In this document: positions 4,114 to 52,440 of the stretch, one piece after another
Position numbering within the stretch: position 1 is the first letter of the stretch
How the letters are laid out: every line of letters starts with the position of its first letter
Notes under the pieces: generated by a model
What the model saw: only the letters and a program-made list of their open reading frames with translations
Database searches by the model: none
What the model was told of the DNA's origin: nothing
Assembly: GCA_964545795.1 (NCBI GenBank)
Contig: CAZJGC010000003.1
Location: forward strand, 738-64,737
Reading direction: 5' to 3'
Source of the DNA: an uncultured archaeon
Lineage (GTDB): Archaea > Aenigmatarchaeota > Aenigmatarchaeia > Aenigmatarchaeales > DAIDAN01
Length of the DNA: 64,000 nt
Program-made: the position numbers and the translations under genes

Positions 4114-4136
4114 ACCCCTTTGTTTCCTATGGAACT
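4114..4136 (-). promoter_or_regulatory. origin recognition box (ORB-A) with G-string
   Basis: Minus-strand read GTTCCATAGGAAACAAAGGGGT. It matches the archaeal ORB consensus (TTCCA-nn-GGAAAC-GAA-GGGGT) at nearly every position. Confidence 0.55.
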
Positions 4137-4174
4137 TCACGTATAAGTATTATTGATTATACGTTAATCACGTT

Positions 4175-4197
4175 ACCCCTTCATTTCCTATGGAAAA
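4175..4197 (-). promoter_or_regulatory. origin recognition box (ORB-B) with G-string, direct repeat of ORB-A
   Basis: Minus-strand read TTTTCCATAGGAAATGAAGGGGT. Overlaps the last codons of the PAP2 ORF. Confidence 0.55.
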
Positions 4198-4670: not shown

Positions 4671-7304
4671 TTATATTTTAACAACTGTTCCAACATATCC
4701 GTCCTTCTCAAAATTCAGTTGCCCTCCGCATTCGGGGCACTTGCCAACAAGAGGAATTCTTCTGAAAGACCATTTGCATTTAATGCACGAAACAGCATCA
4801 AAACCCTCCAATATAGTCTCCTGAGCAGGTTTTGATGAAAAAACTTCAAAAAGACTCTTCTGTCTTGAACCTTCAAGAAGTTCAGCCTTATCCACGCCGC
4901 ATGCTTTAAAAATTCTCTCTATAGGAGGCAATATCTGGTTCTCTATATAATATTTTGAATCAATTTCAAGCCCCTTCTCTTTAACATATTCAGGGTCCTC
5001 TGCCCTTTTTGACAAGAGTTGGTTTCCCTTAATTATAACATAAGAAATTCTCTCTCCAACTGTTATGTTTCTTGTCGCATCTCTTGCATTTATCTTCTTT
5101 GCAAGCTCAACATGCGGTTGCACGCCGTCATAACTGTTCAGCGATTTGGTTATTCCTTTAACAATAGAAAGCTTTTCTAATGGTATTTTGCCTTCAGAAA
5201 GGCTTTTTATAACCTCTCTGACGTATTTAGACGCTTTTATTATATCTCCTTCCTTAAGAATTATATTTAATACGTTCATCATTGTTTCCCCTGTAAGTGA
5301 ACACCAATCCCTTCTAACAGTTTCTATTCCCTTCATTTCTATTTTATTTTCACCTTCTTCAAATTTCCAGCCCGCATATCGCTTCTTTGTAATAATAAGG
5401 AATGTTTTGTATGTTTTTTCAAATTTAAGGTTTAAAACTCCGGGCAATCTCTCTGAAACAAACTCAGAAATTTCTCTTCCTAACTTCTCTGCCTCCTCAA
5501 TATCAGATGTATTTGTTTCCACAAAAATAGAATCAGTATCGCCATAAACAACTCTTACAGGAAAATTCTCTTCAACCATTTTTTGCGTTTTCAGAATATT
5601 CTCCCTGCCATACGCCGTAACCGAGTTGGCAACATCCATAACATAAAGCCTTGCCCTTAAATAGCCTGTATAACCATATAAACTGTTAGCCATATCCTTT
5701 AAAGCCAACTGTTTTGCATTTAGCAATCTTTTTTCATCTCCTTCTGAAGATTTCATCCTTTTCTTAACAGCCGCGCGCGCTTCCATTAACTCCTTAAGAA
5801 CAGCTGGCAAAACCCCTTCCCTTACTTCAGGTTTCACAAATTTTACTCCCTGTGGGGTTGTGAAATGTTCAACATCATATTTATTATTAATAAGCAGAGT
5901 AGATGGGCATATATTGAATGTGCGTATTATGGACGGATATAGGCTTGTGAAATCAAGAACAACCACGCATTTATCTTTATACAACCCTGTAATGGGTTCA
6001 AGAACAATTGCGCCTTTAAGTCCTGCCTCCTCTCTTTCCTCTTTATATTTCATCAACTCGGCTGCTTCAGGTTTGCACGGCATTAGCATATTTCTCTTTC
6101 TAAATTCATGCAAAAGCCTGCACTCATGCCTCTGCGACTGTCCTCCTAAACTGTCCTGCAAAAGCAGACCTGATATTTTAGAAAGCTCAAAAAACTTGTC
6201 AATAAGGTTTTTTTCAATAACAAGAGCCAAAGCAAGCTCGGAGTCAACGCGGCAATACTCAACAAATTTGTTTAAATCCGCTGTATCCCCATTCCATAAT
6301 TTTTTCATTTCCTTTGGTCCTCCTACTTCAATTTTTTTCTTTCCAAGCATAGCCTCCGCTATTGTCCCCAAATCATATCTTTTAAATTTAACCCATGGAT
6401 CTCTTTTTATTATCTCATAAGGGTCAACAATAATGCGTCCTGATACAGAACACATATAACTGTTTTGCAGTTTTCTGCAGACAGAAGGCTTGCTTGACCT
6501 GCCAAAAGAACTGGAAACCCCAAGAACTTCCATTCTCTTTACAATATAAGGCAAATCAAAGTTGTTAATGTTATAACCTACTATAATATCAGGGTCAAAA
6601 GACTCTATTATATCGCTAAACTTTTCCAGCATCTGTTTTTCATCAGAACATATTATTGCATTGCCGTTCATACACTGCTTGCTAATAAGAACAGTTGTTT
6701 TTTTGCCGTTAAAATCAGGATAAAAAGCCATGCTTATCATGATTATCGGGTCTTTTTCAAAATCAGGCATTCTGTCATCGCTCTCAGATATGCATTCAAT
6801 ATCAAAACTAACATAACGCAGGGGCGCGTTCCCTTCTTTTTCTATTGTTCTTACTTTGTCTGCATCTATAGCCCTGCATTTTACGGTTTTCGTAAATGCT
6901 GGAGAACCTTCAATTTCAACCCATGACATTCCCCATAAATCATAATCAACCATAAACCTGTACTTAAAAAGAATGTCAGCCTCATAAACAGTTCCATAAG
7001 GTTTTAATCTCTCCTTTATTTCAGGTATTTTTCCCGGGTCTTTGCCCGTAATTTTCAAAACCTGTTTGGACTCATTATAACCAATTGGTATTATTTTTTT
7101 CTCAACATTTATAGAAACATTATAATCTTTTAACACTTCGCGTATTTTATCAGTGTCCTGAGAATCTATATAACAGTACGGAAGGAAATTCTTAAAGAAA
7201 GCGCATACTGTTTCTCCTTGTTCTGTTTTTCCAAAAAGCCTTACCAAAGGCTTTCCATTAAGCATAACATAATCACAATCAAGAATCTGCATTGCAACTC
7301 TCAT
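4671..7304 (-). CDS. polB: family-B DNA polymerase (PolB) with C-terminal zinc ribbon
   Basis: Exo motif FDIE, YGDTDS polymerase motif, K-x3-NS-x-YG motif, and C-terminal Cys4 ribbon (CIKCKW...CPECGG). At 877 aa there is no room for an intein. Confidence 0.95.
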   Translation of the reverse strand: MRVAMQILDCDYVMLNGKPLVRLFGKTEQGETVCAFFKNFLPYCYIDSQDTDKIREVLKDYNVSINVEKKIIPIGYNESKQVLKITGKDPGKIPEIKERLKPYGTVYEADILFKYRFMVDYDLWGMSWVEIEGSPAFTKTVKCRAIDADKVRTIEKEGNAPLRYVSFDIECISESDDRMPDFEKDPIIMISMAFYPDFNGKKTTVLISKQCMNGNAIICSDEKQMLEKFSDIIESFDPDIIVGYNINNFDLPYIVKRMEVLGVSSSFGRSSKPSVCRKLQNSYMCSVSGRIIVDPYEIIKRDPWVKFKRYDLGTIAEAMLGKKKIEVGGPKEMKKLWNGDTADLNKFVEYCRVDSELALALVIEKNLIDKFFELSKISGLLLQDSLGGQSQRHECRLLHEFRKRNMLMPCKPEAAELMKYKEEREEAGLKGAIVLEPITGLYKDKCVVVLDFTSLYPSIIRTFNICPSTLLINNKYDVEHFTTPQGVKFVKPEVREGVLPAVLKELMEARAAVKKRMKSSEGDEKRLLNAKQLALKDMANSLYGYTGYLRARLYVMDVANSVTAYGRENILKTQKMVEENFPVRVVYGDTDSIFVETNTSDIEEAEKLGREISEFVSERLPGVLNLKFEKTYKTFLIITKKRYAGWKFEEGENKIEMKGIETVRRDWCSLTGETMMNVLNIILKEGDIIKASKYVREVIKSLSEGKIPLEKLSIVKGITKSLNSYDGVQPHVELAKKINARDATRNITVGERISYVIIKGNQLLSKRAEDPEYVKEKGLEIDSKYYIENQILPPIERIFKACGVDKAELLEGSRQKSLFEVFSSKPAQETILEGFDAVSCIKCKWSFRRIPLVGKCPECGGQLNFEKDGYVGTVVKI

Positions 7305-7327: not shown

Positions 7328-8203
7328 TTAAATTATTTTTTTATTTATTTCAACCCTGCCTGTATGCAACTCTATCTTTGCTGTTTGTTTCTCATTAATG
7401 CCAATAATTTTCACTCCATTATAATCTTTAATACCAACACCAGAGAAGCACAAAAAATAATCAGGAACTTCATCAAGTATGTTTTCTTCATAAATTCTTC
7501 CGGGATAGAAGCATCTTTTGCTAAGCACGGTTACAGGGTCTTTTGTATTAAAAACAAGAATCAATATATTATTAATTTTAACATAAACAGGATTTGAAGA
7601 GGCGAACAAAGAGTCTTTCTCTATTCTTGTCTCATTATCAAAAAATATTTTATAATCTCCGCAGTTTCCATTGAAACAAACAGTGCATTTCTTTCCTGAA
7701 ATTTTCGGAGTGTTTTTTATATTTGGATATTCTACAAACTCGGCATGCAGCACTTTATCTTTTACAATGCCGGAAACAAGAACAATTTCATCATTTATCA
7801 GTTTAATGCCATCTTTCAATCTTACCTTTATTTCGCCTGTTGGGTCTTCAATTTCAGCTTCATTGTTCTTAACATTTTTAACAATGCCTATAACAGATGC
7901 ATCACCAAAAACATTTGATATAGAAACAGTGTTTTTCTTTTTCACAAAATATTCGCTCATTTTCTGATAATATCTATTGTAAACTGCAACCAATTCATGA
8001 ACAGTATATTTCTTTTGCTCATGTTTCTTTTCAACCACTTCAAAAACATTTTCAAAAAAATCCTCTCCTATAACCAATGGTTTTTCTTTTTTTATTCGCT
8101 CAATAACTGCTTTAATCTCATGCTCGTTTAACCTGTTTATATGTTCGGCTGCTTTTGGTTCAACAAGAACTCCCATATCCATTATTTCTTTTATCACATT
8201 CAT
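7328..8203 (-). CDS. PolD small-subunit (DP1)/B-subunit-like protein: N-terminal DP1-type helical domain plus OB fold; phosphoesterase motifs not detectable
   Basis: N-terminus VIKEIMDMGVLVEPKAAEHI...PLVIGEDFF is like the DP1 N-terminal domain. OB-fold segment ASVIGIVKNVKNNEAEIEDPTGEIKVRLKD...IVLVSGIV matches the RPA/DP1 pattern xEDxTGxIxVxL. Synteny oriC-cdc6-DP1 as in PolD-bearing euryarchaea. No GDxHxG, GDxxDRG or GNHE motifs in the 130-aa C-terminus. Confidence 0.4.
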   Translation of the reverse strand: MNVIKEIMDMGVLVEPKAAEHINRLNEHEIKAVIERIKKEKPLVIGEDFFENVFEVVEKKHEQKKYTVHELVAVYNRYYQKMSEYFVKKKNTVSISNVFGDASVIGIVKNVKNNEAEIEDPTGEIKVRLKDGIKLINDEIVLVSGIVKDKVLHAEFVEYPNIKNTPKISGKKCTVCFNGNCGDYKIFFDNETRIEKDSLFASSNPVYVKINNILILVFNTKDPVTVLSKRCFYPGRIYEENILDEVPDYFLCFSGVGIKDYNGVKIIGINEKQTAKIELHTGRVEINKKII

Positions 8204-8213
8204 ACAAAACTCC

Positions 8214-9401
8214 TTAGTACAAAACCTCGCAAAGAACTTTCTTCATTTTCTCTTTGACAGTGTCGTCAACCATAAGATTTATTATTTTTGTGCGCCCATA
8301 TCTTCCTCTTGAAACATTTTTTGTGCTTATTATTCCAAACATATCAAGTTCAGATATAAGGTCTGAAACTCTTCTTTGAGTCAAAGGTTTTAACCCATAC
8401 TTCACGCAGTTTTTCTGATACTCTGAAAGAACATCTCCTGTAAGAACTTCTTTATTGTTTTCCAGCAAATCCAATATGGTCTGCATAACAATTTGGCTTT
8501 GTTTTGGCTGCGTCTTTACAATTTCAACAAATTTGTCAACATTTATTTTCTCTTCTGCTGAATCAACATGTTTTATTGTTACTTTCCTGCTTCCAGAACG
8601 CTCGGCAATCTCTCCTGCAACGCGGAGCAGATCCAAAGCCCGCCTTGCATCCCCATGCTCCTGTGCAGCAAGCGCAGCGCACTTCTCTATAACACCTTCT
8701 TCTATAACTCCTTCCGAAAAAGCAATTTCAGCCCTCTGCCTCAATATATCCTTTATCTGCGAAGCATTGTATGGAGGAAAAATAAGTTCTTCCTCAGAAA
8801 GAGATGATTTAATTCTTGTATCAAGAGTATTTACAAAACTAAGGTTGTTTGTTATTCCTATCAAACATATTTTTGCATTTTTCAATTCCTGATTTATTCT
8901 TGTCAGATTATAAATAATTTCATCTCCTGTCTTCTGCACAAGAGCATCTATTTCATCAATTATTAAAATCAAAATCTGTTTTTCAGAATCTATAACATCA
9001 AGAAATATTTTATATATCCTGTCAGTAGGAAGTCCTGTAAAAGGAACTTCTTTTCCAAGTTCTTTTAGTATTGTTGCCAATACCCTGTATTCTGTGTCTG
9101 CCACTTTTTTAAGTTTGCAGTTTATATAAACAGATTTTACTTTAAATTTCCTACTAGTTTCAATAAGTTTTTTTGTAACATAACATGAAATCAATGATTT
9201 CCCTGTTCCTGTTCTACCATAAATAAAAACATTGCTTGGTTTTGAACCAACAAGGGCAGGTGCCAAAATTTTGCCAAGTTCCTCTATCTGTTTTTCCCTA
9301 TGCAATATTTTACCAGGAACAAAACAAACAGAAAGAGCATCCCTGTCATTAAATAAACATTGAGATTGTATAAAATCATTAAATATTTTTTCCAAACTCA
9401 T
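8214..9401 (-). CDS. cdc6: Orc1/Cdc6 replication initiator
   Basis: AAA+ Walker A (GRTGTGKS) and Walker B (LILIIDEIDAL) with C-terminal winged helix; lies next to an AT-rich ORB-bearing region. Confidence 0.95.
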   Translation of the reverse strand: MSLEKIFNDFIQSQCLFNDRDALSVCFVPGKILHREKQIEELGKILAPALVGSKPSNVFIYGRTGTGKSLISCYVTKKLIETSRKFKVKSVYINCKLKKVADTEYRVLATILKELGKEVPFTGLPTDRIYKIFLDVIDSEKQILILIIDEIDALVQKTGDEIIYNLTRINQELKNAKICLIGITNNLSFVNTLDTRIKSSLSEEELIFPPYNASQIKDILRQRAEIAFSEGVIEEGVIEKCAALAAQEHGDARRALDLLRVAGEIAERSGSRKVTIKHVDSAEEKINVDKFVEIVKTQPKQSQIVMQTILDLLENNKEVLTGDVLSEYQKNCVKYGLKPLTQRRVSDLISELDMFGIISTKNVSRGRYGRTKIINLMVDDTVKEKMKKVLCEVLY

Positions 9402-9438
9402 TTTATTACAATGGAAATAAAGGTATTTATATTTTTAT

Positions 9439-9464
9439 AACCTTTTTTTCCTATGGAAATTCAC
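9439..9464 (-). promoter_or_regulatory. ORB element 1 of oriC (mini-ORB dyad, weak G-string)
   Basis: AACCTTTTTTTCCTATGGAAATTCAC; same dyad core as ORB-A and ORB-B. Confidence 0.5.
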
Positions 9465-9623
9465 TAAAATACAGTGACACACCCTTTCTTTTCCTTTAGA
9501 AACATTTTTAGAAATTAAATAAGTAATAAAAATTATTATATTAACTTTTCAGTAATAATTTTCATATAAATATAACATTGTTATATACTATATTTAATTT
9601 AAAAATAAATTATAAATAACAAA

Positions 9624-9649
9624 TTTCTATAAGAAATGATAGGGGGTCT
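9624..9649 (+). promoter_or_regulatory. ORB element 2 of oriC (degenerate dyad plus GGGGGT G-string), inverted relative to ORB-1
   Basis: TTTCTATAAGAAATGATAGGGGGTCT aligns 16/21 with the ORB-B reverse complement. Confidence 0.45.
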
Positions 9650-9667
9650 AAAATAATAATTATAAAT

Positions 9668-10384
9668 TTATGAGAATTTATTGTGCAAAATTTCTATAAT
9701 TTTTTCTTCAGGTGTCAATGTTATAGCTACAGGTATTCTTTCAACAAAAGCTATTCTTTTCGCGATTTCATCAACGGATTTTATATTTACAAATATTACA
9801 ATTCCTGGTTTAAGATTGGATACTTTTATGGCTATCATTGGGCTTCTTCCGCGTTTAAGATTAGTGAATATAAGAGCCCTTTCTGTTGTCAATCCATACA
9901 ATTTTACAAGGTCTGTTGGAGGCAAATTTATTATTGCTTTAAGGCTGTCTATTATTGTATATCCATAAATATTATTATTTGACAATTCTTCATGAACAAC
10001 AACATCAGCTCCAATAATTTTGCAGAAATTTTTTATTGAAACAGGTTTGTTAAATTCTTTTAAACTTATAACAGCATCAGATAAAATTGTTTCTGTTGGA
10101 AGAGAAGAGAAATATTTTATAATATTTCCGCCATTTCTTTCATCAATATTTATAAGGGCTTCAACTATGCGTTTTATAATTTTTATTCCCGGACTTTTTC
10201 TTCTGCCTGATTCATAATCACTTATAACAGACGGCATTATATGCATTTCATCTGCAAGAGTTTTTTGCGATAATTTAAAAATATTTCTCCATTTTTGTAT
10301 TGTTTTTCCATGGTCATTGCTTAATACAATTTCTCCTGCTATTCTTTTTAGTAAATTTTCTTTTGCTAATGAATTTTTATCCAT
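9668..10384 (-). CDS. XRE-type HTH transcription regulator with a conserved archaeal C-terminal domain (COG1395-like)
   Basis: HTH segment LSQKTLADEMHIMPSVISDYESGRR near the N-terminus. Confidence 0.55.
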   Translation of the reverse strand: MDKNSLAKENLLKRIAGEIVLSNDHGKTIQKWRNIFKLSQKTLADEMHIMPSVISDYESGRRKSPGIKIIKRIVEALINIDERNGGNIIKYFSSLPTETILSDAVISLKEFNKPVSIKNFCKIIGADVVVHEELSNNNIYGYTIIDSLKAIINLPPTDLVKLYGLTTERALIFTNLKRGRSPMIAIKVSNLKPGIVIFVNIKSVDEIAKRIAFVERIPVAITLTPEEKIIEILHNKFS

Positions 10385-10466
10385 ATAAGTATATTGACGA
10401 TAGTCATTTAAATAATTAACGAATGTTATATTAAAACTTTATATAATTAGCAAACAAAATAACTAT

Positions 10467-11018
10467 ATGAGCATAGCAACTGATAAAATATTGGTAAAGG
10501 ATGCAATGAGAAAAAAGGTTTTTACAACAACTGTTGATGAGAGTGTTTTAGATGTTGCCATAAAATTAAAAAATAACGGTGTAGGAAGTCTTGTTGTTAT
10601 GGATGGTGAAAAACCTATAGGAATAATAACAAGAGAAGATATTTCAGATAAGGTTGCTGCTCAGGATAAAAAGGCGTCGGAAGTTAAAGTAAAAGATGTT
10701 ATGAATCAGCCATTAATATCATGTTCTTCTAATGATGATATAAATAGCGTTTCAAAAATTATGGTAAAGTATGGTTATAGAAGAATACCTGTTATAGATA
10801 ATGGAAAACTTGTTGGTATCATATCAGCAAAGGAAATATTGAAAATTTCCCCTGTTCTTGTAGATGTTTTTAAAGAGTATCTTGAAAGAAAATATTCTCC
10901 TGATAAAGAAGAAAGCATGGAAGGCGGGACATGTGAGATGTGCGACAATTATTCTGAAAGTTTGACAAATGTTAATGATAAATGGATATGCGAAGCATGC
11001 AAGGAAGAGAGCGAGTGA
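10467..11018 (+). CDS. CBS-pair domain protein with C-terminal Cys4 zinc ribbon
   Basis: Two CBS repeats; C-terminal CEMCDN...CEACKEE. Confidence 0.7.
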   Translation: MSIATDKILVKDAMRKKVFTTTVDESVLDVAIKLKNNGVGSLVVMDGEKPIGIITREDISDKVAAQDKKASEVKVKDVMNQPLISCSSNDDINSVSKIMVKYGYRRIPVIDNGKLVGIISAKEILKISPVLVDVFKEYLERKYSPDKEESMEGGTCEMCDNYSESLTNVNDKWICEACKEESE

Positions 11019-11020
11019 TA

Positions 11021-11248
11021 ATGCTTGTAAATGCCAAAGTGAAGACAGGCGCAAAAAAATTTTCTGTGAAATTTGAAAATAATATATTATTTATATCATT
11101 AACAGAGCAGCCTGAAAATAATAAAGCAAATATAGAACTTATAAAACAACTGACAAAAGTTTTTGGACCATGTAGAATTGTGAAAGGGTTGCGCTCAAAA
11201 AACAAGGTTATTGAGTTTGAAGCAGATAAAATTAAATTTTCAGATTAG
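11021..11248 (+). CDS. YggU/DUF167-family small protein
   Basis: MLVNAKVKTGAKK... pattern of the UPF0235 family. The likely real start is the ATG at 11021 rather than the track start at 10982, which overlaps the CBS gene. Confidence 0.55.
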   Translation: MLVNAKVKTGAKKFSVKFENNILFISLTEQPENNKANIELIKQLTKVFGPCRIVKGLRSKNKVIEFEADKIKFSD

Positions 11249-11426
11249 TTTCTGTTTGCTCTGCATATGTTTAAATATTTTAAAATTCTATAACTATTAT
11301 TGAAACCGGAAAAGCTGGTAAAAATTAAATTAATCAATTAATATCATTTATAATCATTAGTAAATCAATAACAAACAGGAAATTAGACATAACAGCTCTT
11401 TCTCGGTTTAAAAAACGAAAAGGTGA

Positions 11427-12632
11427 TTGTTTATGGCTAAATTGGCTCAAACAACTTCAAAATATACTATTTACGCGAAATTTGAAGCTGACGGCACTGT
11501 TGAAAAACCTGATGTAATAGGCGCTGTTTTCGGGCAGACAGAAGGCTTGCTCGGACAGGAACTTGATTTAAGGGAACTTCAGAGAACAGGGAGAATAGGA
11601 AGAATAGATGTTGAATTGACTTCAAAGAACGGCAAAGTGTCAGGAAAAATAATTATTCCTTCTTCGCTTGATGGAAGTGAGACAGCGCTGATAGGCGCAT
11701 GCATGGAAACAATAGAACGTGTTGGGCCATGCAATGCAACTGTTGTGGTTGAAAAAATAGAAGATGTGAGGGCGGTAAAGAGAAGATATGTTATAGACAG
11801 GGCGAAAGAACTTCTTGAAAGCCTTTATGATATTGGAATGGAAGCAGAGGAAATATCGGAGCAAATAAAAGAGGCTGTGAGGTCAAGCGAAATAACAACA
11901 TATCAGGGCTTGCCTGCAGGACCTAAAATAACAAGTTCTGATAATATTATAGTTGTTGAAGGACGCGCAGATGTTGTTAATTTGTTAAGATGCGGCATTA
12001 AAAATGTCATAGCAATAGAAGGCACAAGCATACCTGAAGCCATAATAAATCTTTCAAAGGAAAAAACAATGACAGTTTTTTTGGACGGAGACAGGGGCGG
12101 AGATTTAATTTTAAAGGAAATGCTTGCTGTGTGCGAGGTTGATTTCATAGCTCGCGCAACAAGGGGCAAGGAAGTTGAAGACCTGACAAAGAAAGAAATA
12201 TATAAATGTTTGAGAGCTCAGATGCCTGTTGACCAATACAAAGAGGAATTTAATTTGGAGAAAGGAAAGAGAGGAAATTCAAAACAGGCAAATACAAGGC
12301 AGGCAGATGCAAAACAGATAAACAAAAATGCGAAGATTGGAAAGGAGAAAATGGCAAACATAAAGAAATTGCTGGAGGAATTGACGGGAACAAGAGCTGC
12401 CTGTTTCTTGGATGAAGACATGAACATTACAAAGAGAATGCCTGTTAAGGATATGTTCAATGCCATGAAAGAGGTGCACCCGTTTGCATTGGTTTTTGAC
12501 GGAGAGATAGACCAGAAACTTGTTACATTTTCATCTCAAAGAAATGTCAGATATATTGTCGGCATGAAGACAAGGGGAAGAATCGCAGTTCCAGATAATA
12601 TGCAGGTGTTCACTATTGACACCCTGCAATAA
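11427..12632 (+). CDS. dnaG: archaeal DnaG-like primase (TOPRIM; exosome-associated)
   Basis: N-terminus KYTIYAKFEADGTVEKPDVIGAVFGQTEGLLG is diagnostic of archaeal DnaG. TOPRIM IVVEGRADVVNL plus DGDRGG. Confidence 0.85.
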   Translation: MFMAKLAQTTSKYTIYAKFEADGTVEKPDVIGAVFGQTEGLLGQELDLRELQRTGRIGRIDVELTSKNGKVSGKIIIPSSLDGSETALIGACMETIERVGPCNATVVVEKIEDVRAVKRRYVIDRAKELLESLYDIGMEAEEISEQIKEAVRSSEITTYQGLPAGPKITSSDNIIVVEGRADVVNLLRCGIKNVIAIEGTSIPEAIINLSKEKTMTVFLDGDRGGDLILKEMLAVCEVDFIARATRGKEVEDLTKKEIYKCLRAQMPVDQYKEEFNLEKGKRGNSKQANTRQADAKQINKNAKIGKEKMANIKKLLEELTGTRAACFLDEDMNITKRMPVKDMFNAMKEVHPFALVFDGEIDQKLVTFSSQRNVRYIVGMKTRGRIAVPDNMQVFTIDTLQ

Positions 12633-20240: not shown

Positions 20241-21944
20241 ATGTTATTTGAAGTTGTTGACAGGGATGCTGCAGGCAGGATTGGGAAATTAAAGATAGGA
20301 AAATATAAAATTAAAACCCCTAATATAGCGGTTGTAATAAATCCCAATAAGATGGTTGTGCCTATAAAAGAATTGAAAAAAATGGGAGTTGAAATAATAA
20401 TTACAAATTCTTATATAATAAACAATAATCCTGAAATCAGAGAGAAAGTGTTGGAAACAGGTTTGCACAAATTTTTTGGTTGGGACGGCCCAATTTACAC
20501 AGATTCTGGAACATATCAGATGTATTCGCGGAACATAAAAGACATTTCGCAAACGCAGATTCTGGAATTTCAAAGAACAATTGGTTCTGATATTATAACT
20601 CCTGTTGATGTTTTCACAACGCCGTTTGATTCAAAACCTGAAGCAAGAAAGAAATTAGAGGAGACAATAAAAAGAGTAAAAACAGCGAGAAAGACAGTGA
20701 AAACTGACCTTGTTGGGCCCATACAGGGAGGAAGTTTTATTGATTTAAGAAAAAAGGCTTGCAGAGAAATAGAAAAGGCGGGTGTTGATGTTTTTGCAGT
20801 AGGCGGCATTGTGCCATATATGGAATCTTATAAATTCACTGAATTATGCGAAACAATAATAACATGCAAGCAGTCGCTTCCTTCAAACAAGCCTGTTCAC
20901 GCTTTTGGAGCAGGGCATCCTATGGTTTTTTCGTTGCTTGTTGCATGCGGGTGCGACTTGTTTGATTCAGCTATGTATTCTTTGGCAGCAGGCAGAAATT
21001 CATATTTGACTGCAAGCGGCACAATGCATCTGGAAGATTTAGCGGAATTTCCATGTTCATGTCCTGCATGCATTAAAACAACACCATCTGAAGTAAAGAG
21101 AATGCAAAAGGAGGATAGACAGCAATTTCTTGCAAAACATAACCTATTTTCAACAATGCAAGAGTTAAAAACAGTTAGAAACGCGATTTCAAATAATAAT
21201 TTATGGGAACTTGTGCAGAGGCGTTCTTCTTCAAATCCAAGACTTTTTGAGGCATTTTTAACAATTTTAAAGAAGTATAAAGATTATTTTTTAGAGAAAG
21301 ACGTTTTCGGTAAGAAATCAGCTTTTGTATATAATAGTGAGGCATCAAAGTATAGGCCAGAGGTTTTTAAAGCAAAAGAAAGAATAAAAAATGTTAAATC
21401 AAAGAAATATTTCAAAAAAGAACCTTTTGGTAAAATACCTTACGAATTATACTTTGTCTATCCTTTTTATCAAAGCATTATACCTTTTTATAACGAGAAA
21501 AAACATGTGAAAATAGATGTTAAAGATATGATTAGAGCGGTTCTAGATTATCAATTTGGAAAAGGAACAAATGATAGAATAAAAGAATTTGAGGTAGAAA
21601 AATCAAGAAAAACAGGCATTATAAGGAGAATTTATCATAAAAACAAACTTATAGGCACTTTGAGGTCTTGGGATAATTTTCTTTTGCCAAGTATTTATGG
21701 CGCTGAATTATTAAAGATAAAAAAAGTTGTTGTAAAAGATAGGGATGCTGCCGAGTTTGTAAGCAAGGGCAGTGATTTGTTGGCAAAATTTGTTTATAAG
21801 GCAGATAAAATAATGCCTGGGGAGGAAGTTGCCGTGAAATATAAAAAGAAGATAATAGCTGTTGGCAGGGCATTGCTGAACTATAAGGAAATGAAGGAAT
21901 TTAATTATGGTGTTGCTGTAAAAGTGAGAAACCATATAAAATAA
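20241..21944 (+). CDS. tgtA: archaeosine tRNA-guanine transglycosylase (ArcTGT) with C-terminal PUA domain
   Basis: N-terminus MLFEVVDRDAAGRIGKLKIG is typical of ArcTGT; 567 aa matches TGT plus C1/C2/PUA. Confidence 0.85.
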   Translation: MLFEVVDRDAAGRIGKLKIGKYKIKTPNIAVVINPNKMVVPIKELKKMGVEIIITNSYIINNNPEIREKVLETGLHKFFGWDGPIYTDSGTYQMYSRNIKDISQTQILEFQRTIGSDIITPVDVFTTPFDSKPEARKKLEETIKRVKTARKTVKTDLVGPIQGGSFIDLRKKACREIEKAGVDVFAVGGIVPYMESYKFTELCETIITCKQSLPSNKPVHAFGAGHPMVFSLLVACGCDLFDSAMYSLAAGRNSYLTASGTMHLEDLAEFPCSCPACIKTTPSEVKRMQKEDRQQFLAKHNLFSTMQELKTVRNAISNNNLWELVQRRSSSNPRLFEAFLTILKKYKDYFLEKDVFGKKSAFVYNSEASKYRPEVFKAKERIKNVKSKKYFKKEPFGKIPYELYFVYPFYQSIIPFYNEKKHVKIDVKDMIRAVLDYQFGKGTNDRIKEFEVEKSRKTGIIRRIYHKNKLIGTLRSWDNFLLPSIYGAELLKIKKVVVKDRDAAEFVSKGSDLLAKFVYKADKIMPGEEVAVKYKKKIIAVGRALLNYKEMKEFNYGVAVKVRNHIK

Positions 21945-22068
21945 CACTGTTATATTTATTGTGAGACATAAAAATAATAGAAAAAACAAAAACATTAAAA
22001 TTTCTAAGTATTTTGGCGATTAGAGCCAAAATTTAATTTTTATAAAACTCTATTCCTAATATAGTAAT

Positions 22069-31333: not shown

Positions 31334-31935
31334 GTGAGAGTTAGCGCTTGAATGCTAACTTTCTTATATTCTCACAAAATGTATTTTTTAACTTTTGATA
31401 AAAACATTTAGACTAACGTAAAATTCAATACTTGCAAAATTATCTGTTCAATTAAACTCTAACAATGCATTAATCCTAACATTTCTTACAATATGTTGTT
31501 TCAGTGGATGTAAAGGCAAACTCTCACATTTCAATTTACTTTTTATGTTTCCGGATAATTTTTATGAAGGAATCACTCACAATAAGTATGTCTAACACTT
31601 AATAACATAGGTTAATCATTTGGGTGAAGTCTCACTTTTCTCTTGCAGCAGAATTATAACAATGTAATATAACATTGTTATTATATGTTGATAATGATTA
31701 ACTCTCACTTTGTTAATTCTATGGAAAAATAATCTGAAATATGTCAAATAACAATATCAATTATCTTTAATCTCACTTTATGCAGTGCAGATTTTAGTTT
31801 AAGGCCTTTCTTTGGTTATGTTAACCCTCTCTTAATGGAAAAATAACGAAATTATTTGCAGAAATCTTCAAAACTCTTGAAAAATGCGCGAATCCTGTTT
31901 TCTTTGCAAAATGCATTAACTCTCACTTTTAATTT
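31334..31935 (+). repeat. dispersed 14-nt motif TTAACTCTCACTTT, about 7 copies and 1 inverted, within an 860-bp gene-free region
   Basis: Exact copies at 31698 and 31916. Variants at 31368, 31518, 31627, 31768 and 31821. Inverted copy at 31334. Hairpins at 31340-31361 and 31655-31680. Confidence 0.7.
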
Positions 31936-52352: not shown

Positions 52353-52440
52353 TGGCGCCTGGGACAGGACTCGAACCTGCGACCACCTGGTTTCTGTATA
52401 AATTAACAGCCAGGTGCTCTACCTGCTGAGCTACCCAGGC
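52353..52440 (-). tRNA. tRNA-Asn (anticodon GUU) with a 12-nt canonical intron at 37/38; CCA is encoded
   Basis: Acceptor GCCUGGG/CCCAGGC, D-arm GCUC-AGCAGGUA-GAGC, anticodon stem CCUGG/CCAGG, anticodon GUU at 52405-52407, intron at 52392-52403, T-loop UUCGAGU. Confidence 0.85.

Follow-up and report, generated by a model that had tools for sequence, protein, structure and literature searches.

A reduced PolD small-subunit homologue as the likely B subunit of an adjacent family-B DNA polymerase in an Aenigmatarchaeota replication locus

The subject of this work is a 291-amino-acid (aa) protein, hereafter mini-DP1, encoded in a 64,000-nucleotide (nt) window (the whole stretch of DNA analyzed; positions 738 to 64,737 of contig CAZJGC010000003.1, assembly GCA_964545795.1, from an uncultured archaeon of the Aenigmatarchaeota). 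The observed patterns suggest that mini-DP1 is a degenerate small subunit of DNA polymerase D (PolD), and that it very probably acts as the non-catalytic B subunit of the adjacent family-B DNA polymerase (PolB), the PolD large subunit (DP2) having been replaced in place. On the side of our own analysis, this reading draws on the homology of both partners, the loss of catalytic residues, the conservation of the remaining C-terminal stub and the adjacency of the genes. From the literature it draws on the binding of DP1 to PolB's C-terminal domain (CTD) in Aenigmatarchaeota and on the absence of DP2 from the phylum. The three closely spaced genes of the locus and the domains discussed below are as follows.

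8214..9401, minus strand: orc1/cdc6 initiator gene, 395 aa, first in the cdc6 - mini-DP1 - polB string (NCBIfam NF001625, ORC1-type, E=8.6e-149; Pfam Cdc6_lid and Cdc6_C; upstream position kept in relatives)
7328..8203, minus strand: mini-DP1 gene, 291 aa, ATG start; its product is homologous to the PolD small subunit and eukaryotic B subunits but non-catalytic
8024..8203, minus strand: mini-DP1 residues 1-60, three-helix N-terminal domain of the DP1/B-subunit type (modelled helices 3-9, 16-24 and 27-40; aligns to the DP1 N-terminus)
7724..7927, minus strand: mini-DP1 residues 93-160, oligonucleotide/oligosaccharide-binding (OB) fold with invariant E119-D120-x-T122-G123
7331..7696, minus strand: mini-DP1 residues 170-291, vestigial calcineurin-like phosphodiesterase (PDE) domain, ~120 aa against ~240-260, metal ligands gone
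4671..7304, minus strand: family-B DNA polymerase gene, 877 aa, with a C-terminal extension (Pfam DNA_pol_B E=1.7e-118, exo1 E=1.2e-39)
4710..4787, minus strand: C4 zinc ribbon CIKCKWSFRRIPLVGKCPECGG, PolB residues 840-865, a homologue of DP2 Zn-III, RRxP loop included (from NCBIfam DP2 models, a profile comparison with DP2s, and tblastn)

A DP1 homologue beside a family-B polymerase

Mini-DP1 is homologous to DP1 and B subunits from end to end. Pfam returned nothing significant for it, neither PF04042 nor a Metallophos (PF00149) domain. In NCBIfam, by contrast, the "DNA polymerase II small subunit" model aligned residues 7-167 with profile positions 12-218 of 481 (E=1.9e-9), and the top sequence match in the PDB fell on the OB fold of subunit 2 of human Pol epsilon (E=0.049). 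An initial search recovered only five relatives. A profile search recovered about 30 clusters with lengths of 287-303 aa and, ranked after them, canonical DP1s (475-516 aa) at E-values from 3.5e-8 to 8e-4, and an exhaustive profile search yielded 389 representatives at E<=1e-3, the best 150 of which were all 163-371 aa long. When a 30-sequence mini-DP1 family was compared with four canonical DP1s by hhalign, the two aligned over the full length of both (99.3% probability, E=1e-20).

Further support comes from structure prediction. An AlphaFold2 model built on the family alignment was confident (predicted local distance difference test 87.1, predicted template modelling score 0.78) and showed three helices in the N-terminal domain, an OB fold of five strands and a beta-rich C-terminal domain. 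Its best 35 Foldseek matches in the PDB were all either Pyrococcus abyssi DP1 (best 1.3e-12) or the B subunits of eukaryotic Pol alpha, delta/zeta and epsilon. Could mini-DP1 nevertheless be a generic, RPA-like OB-fold protein that binds single-stranded DNA and resembles DP1 through its OB fold only? We regard this as extremely unlikely, and the profile and structure searches that place the protein in the DP1/B-subunit family rule it out.

The order of domains expected of a DP1 or B subunit, a helical N-terminal domain and then an OB fold carrying EDxTG, is present in mini-DP1, while a full-size calcineurin-like PDE domain is absent. In its place are about 120 residues that match small phosphodiesterases and isolated elements of the PDE fold. 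Aligned to canonical DP1, the protein keeps none of the eight motif positions; PDE motifs I-V, including the equivalent of the proton donor H451, are all lost, and the motif III segment is deleted. Many columns of the family alignment are invariant or nearly so, including columns in the stub, and mean pairwise identity within the family is 63% in the stub against 62% in the N-terminal domain. The C-terminus is a remnant of the PDE fold and not an unrelated sequence. Database annotation lists the relatives of ~290 aa as hypothetical proteins only, and proteins of this size escape Pfam.

These results bear on several statements of the initial annotation. The order cdc6, DP1-like gene, polB was borne out, with gaps of 10 nt between cdc6 and mini-DP1 and 23 nt between mini-DP1 and polB. 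The DP1-type N-terminal domain and OB fold that it described were recovered by the NCBIfam match, by hhalign and by the fold searches, and the profile and fold comparison with DP1 and B subunits that it had proposed found the protein related to them. Its statement that the short C-terminus resembles no phosphoesterase needs to be divided: all eight motif positions are indeed missing, but the sequence itself is a vestigial PDE fold.

The neighbouring polymerase appears complete. In translation, the exonuclease motifs Exo I-III (FDIE, NINNFD, YCRVD) and the polymerase motifs Pol A-C (DFTSLYPS, KDMANSLYG, YGDTDS) are all intact. Among PDB entries the protein matched PolB of Thermococcales (1e-118) and Pol delta (1e-108) with comparable similarity. 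No DP2 gene was found in the 64-kb window, where the largest open reading frame (ORF) is 922 aa and a tblastn search with two canonical DP2s returned only the PolB zinc ribbon. The slot directly downstream of the DP1-like gene is therefore occupied by PolB and not by DP2, as the initial annotation had claimed.

This ribbon, CIKCKWSFRRIPLVGKCPECGG, lies within the last ~40 residues of PolB and is the single C4 motif after the thumb. Three comparisons connect it to DP2. NCBIfam DP2 models match it at the models' own C-terminus (E~1.6e-5); a profile of the PolB tail made from five relatives found DP2 Zn-III only among PDB entries (P. abyssi residues 1122-1147, E=1.3e-6; Thermococcus kodakarensis, E=8.1e-7); and the two canonical DP2s used in tblastn aligned to positions 4689-4787 alone, at 50% identity (E=4e-6 and 3.5e-5). 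The four cysteines and the FRR.PL loop are invariant in the five relatives. Zn-III forms the core of the DP1-DP2 interface in PolD's cryo-EM structure, in which R1131 and R1132 of the P. abyssi Zn-III loop occupy an acidic groove lying between the OB domain and the PDE domain of DP1; a Zn-III peptide of 20 aa has nanomolar affinity for DP1 (PMC6355029). In some lineages the second cysteine pair of the PolB ribbon is CxC (CECGG) instead of CPxC, as seen in the PolB C-termini of loci L060, L080, L081, L088, L071 and L075.

Conservation of the pair and competing explanations

We sought relatives by scanning GTDB species genomes with an alignment of the PolB C-terminus, which recovered 105 species. 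Among the best 80 of these, from which labels were taken, about half are Candidatus Aenigmatarchaeota metagenome-assembled genomes (MAGs), and nearly all others are MAGs labelled "uncultured archaeon" or "archaeon". An identical 291-aa protein is also present on a 77.3-kb metagenome contig from JGI (3300023442, Ga0256751_1000006), and the locus recurs in the complete 833-kb chromosome CP070662.1. Relatives at ~40% identity share the order DnaG, PF1765-like gene, CBS-domain gene, XRE-type helix-turn-helix (HTH) gene, cdc6, zero to three small genes, mini-DP1 and PolB. Synteny was counted over 72 informative related loci. The DP1-like gene stands directly upstream of PolB on the same strand in 60 of them, and the PolB matches the zinc-ribbon profile in 70. 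Two canonical PolD loci from other archaea (L106 and L107) run cdc6-DP1-DP2 in the same order, as the initial annotation had stated for Pyrococcus and methanogens; PolB thus stands where DP2 would be, as replacement in place would predict.

Several observations on these relatives accompany the main pattern. Small genes of ~99 aa and ~210 aa lie between cdc6 and mini-DP1, one to three per locus where they occur, in the following stretches.

L003 680-979: small-gene stretch between cdc6 and mini-DP1
L004 704-1003: small-gene stretch between cdc6 and mini-DP1
L005 9006-9967: small-gene stretch between cdc6 and mini-DP1
L007 8685-9650: small-gene stretch between cdc6 and mini-DP1
L009 994-1942: small-gene stretch between cdc6 and mini-DP1

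These ORFs matched no Pfam family. In the window cdc6 and mini-DP1 lie side by side, and a tblastn search of it with the small ORFs gave no homologue. Several relatives have an orthologous PolB of 1300-1470 aa; the 877-aa PolB of the window is free of inteins. In the PolB of L003, Pfam intein_splicing matches break the polymerase domain at two places. The long PolB genes are these.

L003 1940-6343: long PolB gene
L011 4353-8408: long PolB gene
L013 4491-8405: long PolB gene
L033 4281-8447: long PolB gene
L062 4245-8417: long PolB gene
L077 2699-6691: long PolB gene

A viral carrier of the DP1-PolB pair was also considered and found to be unsupported: mini-DP1 was not found in viral contigs, and viral PolB relatives match the thumb only and not the zinc ribbon, so that neither partner occurs there in this form.

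Together, the sequence and synteny patterns suggest a probable history for the pair. In an ancestor with the usual cdc6-DP1-DP2 string, a PolB gene would have taken the place of DP2 in situ, and the incoming PolB would have kept, or captured, only the Zn-III ribbon of DP2 at its C-terminus. By analogy with PolD geometry, the ribbon and its FRRxPL loop would dock in the groove between the OB fold of DP1 and what remains of the PDE domain, so that PolB and mini-DP1 would form a heterodimer. Since PolB provides both polymerase activity and 3'-5' proofreading, the DP1 nuclease could have become dispensable. The proton-donor histidine would have been lost before the metal ligands, and these before more than half of the PDE domain. 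The regions kept by selection would be the helical N-terminal domain, the OB fold and the PDE stub. The N-terminal domain probably tethers the complex to other replisome proteins, a scaffold role suggested by its counterparts in DP1 and B subunits.

Some points weigh against assigning mini-DP1 to PolB in this way. The PolB tail does not have the helical bundle of the DP2 CTD, whose helices touch PDE loops in PolD (PMC6355029); the interface must therefore be smaller than that of PolD. With a ribbon lacking helices on one side, and an OB fold and PDE stub lacking loops on the other, we infer an interface in which both partners have been reduced together. PMC12680538 terms the Aenigmatarchaeota CTD "degenerate", shorter and with a different predicted structure. 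In some relatives, from the loci named above for their CxC pair, the RR pair of the zinc-ribbon loop is lost (YAMPPL, YDMPPL, YSLPPL, YQRIPL) and mini-DP1 is kept, so the details of docking are not uniform, and docking chemistry may differ between clades. Finally, the cdc6-DP1 pair lies away from PolB in 10 of the 72 loci.

The last of these points, together with the 10-nt distance between mini-DP1 and cdc6, fits another explanation: mini-DP1 may be a true DP1 derivative whose main partner is Orc1/Cdc6 or another replisome component, serving as an accessory in initiation or helicase loading, with its place beside PolB reflecting inherited synteny. In the 10 loci concerned, cdc6 and DP1 stay together while PolB stands apart on the other strand, and the well-conserved N-terminal domain is one that binds other replisome factors in DP1 and B subunits. 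We nonetheless consider this explanation unlikely. The PolB tail keeps a DP1-docking Zn-III with invariant cysteines and FRRxPL, which would be hard to explain without a DP1 partner, and yeast two-hybrid data report binding between DP1 and the PolB CTD in the phylum. The two roles are, moreover, compatible.

It is also conceivable that the ORF is a decaying, non-functional relic of DP1 left behind after the loss of DP2. Every catalytic residue is gone, as is over half of the PDE domain, no Pfam domain is detected, and relatives are annotated as hypothetical only. A relic would not be expected to keep an intact frame and a uniform length over hundreds of diverged relatives, nor a stub as conserved as the N-terminal domain with invariant or nearly invariant columns of its own. 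The confident AlphaFold2 fold, the place beside PolB kept across the phylum, and the two-hybrid interaction published for homologues argue in the same direction, and we judge decay very improbable. Could the stub instead retain nuclease or phosphoesterase activity through non-canonical residues? D183, K196, K228-R230 and D248 are conserved in it, but it has no conserved histidine, and the loss of motifs I-V with the H451 equivalent and the deletion of the motif III segment make residual hydrolysis scarcely credible. The pseudogene and residual-nuclease explanations were both rejected on these points, and a role as B subunit of PolB remains our preferred reading.

Eukaryotic replicative polymerases join a family-B catalytic subunit to a dead DP1-type B subunit via a C-terminal zinc module. 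The initial annotation had likened the locus to this arrangement, and the likeness is supported by the Zn-III module on the PolB tail and by the conserved adjacency of the two genes. Differences remain. The B subunits of Pol alpha, delta and epsilon (PDB 4Y97, 5VBN, 6P1H) have a full-size inactive PDE domain whereas that of mini-DP1 is ~120 aa, and eukaryotic CTDs carry two metal modules plus helices whereas the window PolB carries one zinc ribbon. No direct ancestry of the window system to eukaryotes is implied; PMC12680538 favours the PolB3 of Asgard archaea (Baldrarchaeia). The comparison with canonical PolD (P. abyssi; PDB 5IHE, 6HMS, 6T8H) is similarly mixed. Shared features are the order of cdc6, DP1 and catalytic subunit, the DP1 N-terminal domain, the OB fold with EDxTG, and a catalytic subunit that bears a Zn-III ribbon with its FRRxPL loop. 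The catalytic subunit of PolD, however, is the two-barrel DP2 and not a family-B polymerase, the DP2 CTD helical bundle is missing in the window, and the PDE domain of the window DP1 is a ligand-free stub, so proofreading must come from PolB.

The closest counterpart has already been described in the same phylum. According to Kazlauskas et al. 2020 (PMC7544198), the Aenigmarchaeota members of PolB group B6 ("B6-aenigma1") have one zinc motif, nearest to DP2 Zn-III; most of the phylum lacks DP2; inactive DP1s form an "Aenigma" group; and replacement of DP2 by B6-aenigma1 PolB is proposed. A later study (Nat Ecol Evol 2025, PMC12680538) reports, from AlphaFold 3 models and yeast two-hybrid assays, that DP1 binds CTD-bearing PolB in Aenigmatarchaeota and Baldrarchaeia, and that Aenigmatarchaeota DP1 binds CTD-bearing PolB and not other PolBs. 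As described there, the Baldrarchaeia pair of PolB3-DP2CTD and DP1 shares with the window a PolB with a DP2-derived CTD, a retained DP1 and the loss of DP2; it differs in that its CTD is full-length and DP2-like, whereas that of Aenigmatarchaeota is shorter. Between the B6-aenigma1 system and the window we found no essential difference: the phylum is the same by best matches, both have the single Zn-III-like motif and a DP1 homologue without active-site residues, and no DP2 is nearby. The window is thus an instance of the "B6-aenigma1 PolB plus inactivated DP1" system, its PolB being a putative member of group B6.

The initial annotation had considered the arrangement notable for an archaeon that seems to depend on PolB alone, a presumed dependence for which the two papers above are the source. 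The arrangement is real, but it is not new, having been published in 2020 and 2025 in those papers. Because the system has been published for the phylum together with interaction data, the window adds an instance and not a discovery. Archaea with this pairing show that a chimera of PolB and parts of PolD can arise in prokaryotes, and the locus is a clean example, with the DP2 slot filled by a PolB that carries only Zn-III and the DP1 partner reduced to a scaffold. What may remain novel is the extent and the graded nature of PDE loss, the rest being already known for the phylum.

Graded loss of the phosphodiesterase domain

We assessed this loss by aligning 75 Aenigmatarchaeota-type DP1-like ORFs to a canonical DP1 profile and scoring eight motif positions. 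About 20 species keep six or seven of the eight, with L035 and L026, for example, reading SDLH / GDIV / GNMD / VHD / GHTH. Degenerate intermediates occur in L034 and L028, among others, and about 40 ORFs, that of the window included, keep none. DP1-like ORFs with a complete N-terminus range from 280 to 442 aa (median 360), and none is of canonical length. The window protein stands at the short end of this erosion series.

One position is lost in every member: none of the 75 ORFs has a histidine at the column of the GNHD histidine, which corresponds to P. abyssi H451 in an alignment to 5ihe (chain index 307 plus an offset of 144). H451 is the proton donor, and the H451A substitution gives an exonuclease-deficient variant that retains its bound metals. 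With the GNHD histidine missing throughout, DP1 inactivation appears to hold in all species sampled. In L035, L026, L064, L041, L017, L068 and some 15 other loci, all metal-ligand motifs (SDLH, GD, GN, H, GHxH) are present; in these ~20 species Met, Ile, Val or Leu replaces the proton-donor histidine of GNHD. Judged by these residues, the ligand-retaining DP1s are a putative natural equivalent of the exonuclease-dead H451A variant of P. abyssi, and they may still bind metal.

With roughly even confidence, we propose that Aenigmatarchaeota hold a stepwise series running from ligand-retaining forms without the proton-donor histidine (~350-400 aa), through degenerate forms, to forms of ~290 aa. 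On this proposal a minimal B subunit would need its N-terminal domain and OB fold plus a stub of ~120 aa still able to form the docking groove for Zn-III, and a full PDE domain would be dispensable for B-subunit function. The graded loss offers a natural set of variants for mapping the minimal needs of a B subunit. In their searchable text, PMC7544198 and PMC12680538 call DP1 "inactive" or "inactivated" and never use "truncat*", "PDE" or "phosphodiesterase". The extent and graded loss of the PDE domain may therefore not be spelled out in published descriptions.

A candidate origin and the surrounding genes

The initial annotation had placed the locus in an oriC-cdc6-DP1 synteny. The gene order stands, whereas the oriC label is plausible only, given an AT-rich spacer with a conserved palindrome. 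The elements upstream of cdc6 are as follows.

9402..9667, no strand assigned: spacer of 266 nt, AT-rich, upstream of cdc6; a candidate for an origin, a promoter region or both; holds a palindrome and repeats
9668-10384, minus strand: XRE-type HTH gene, in the conserved block upstream of cdc6
10467-11018, plus strand: CBS-domain gene, in the same block, which also holds a PF1765-like gene
11427-12632, plus strand: DnaG primase gene; block kept in relatives (L001, L005, L007) at ~40% protein identity

The palindrome, TAACATTGTTA, lies at 9573-9583, 172 nt upstream of the cdc6 ATG. Across 37 related loci, the palindrome, as TAACANTGTTA, is present 60-350 nt upstream of cdc6 in 20, and in one further locus it falls inside the longest called cdc6 ORF. 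Its density in the 60-350-nt zone is 1.25/kb against 0.014/kb elsewhere in those loci, a ~90-fold enrichment. This element could be bound by Orc1, or could serve the XRE-type HTH gene that lies upstream (9668-10384, minus strand) as its operator. An oriC beside cdc6 is plausible, with its putative origin function suggested by sequence features of the spacer. Copies of TAACANTGTTA are also found in the window at 21942-21952 and 31670-31680.

The repeats of the spacer fared differently. Three TTTCCAnnGGAAA-like dyads lie at 9405-9502 with a spacing of 42-43 nt. At up to two mismatches, TTTCCAnnGGAAA gave 60 matches against 49.8 expected from shuffles, which is no enrichment; the exact core TTCCANNGGAA was absent from the region upstream of cdc6 in nine related loci. 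We therefore dropped these repeats, which resemble origin recognition boxes, as evidence for an origin, since they show no enrichment over shuffles. Two more TTTCCAnnGGAAA-like copies, one an exact TTTCCATAGGAAA, lie at 4123-4196; polB is followed by a PAP2 gene, and these copies are in the spacer on that gene's downstream side.

The wider setting of the locus is a neighbourhood of replication genes, made up of cdc6, mini-DP1, polB and the conserved block upstream of cdc6 (9668-12632). The gene content of the window is archaeal and includes topoisomerase VI B, aCPSF1, archaeal AlaRS, TgtA and DnaG. No rRNA was found in the 64-kb window, and ARAGORN found no tRNA there, so the taxonomic reading draws on protein matches only. 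Rfam, in turn, identified an 85-nt tRNA on the minus strand at 52356-52440 (62.9 bits), not reported by ARAGORN; it may hold an intron or be unusual among archaeal tRNAs in some other way.
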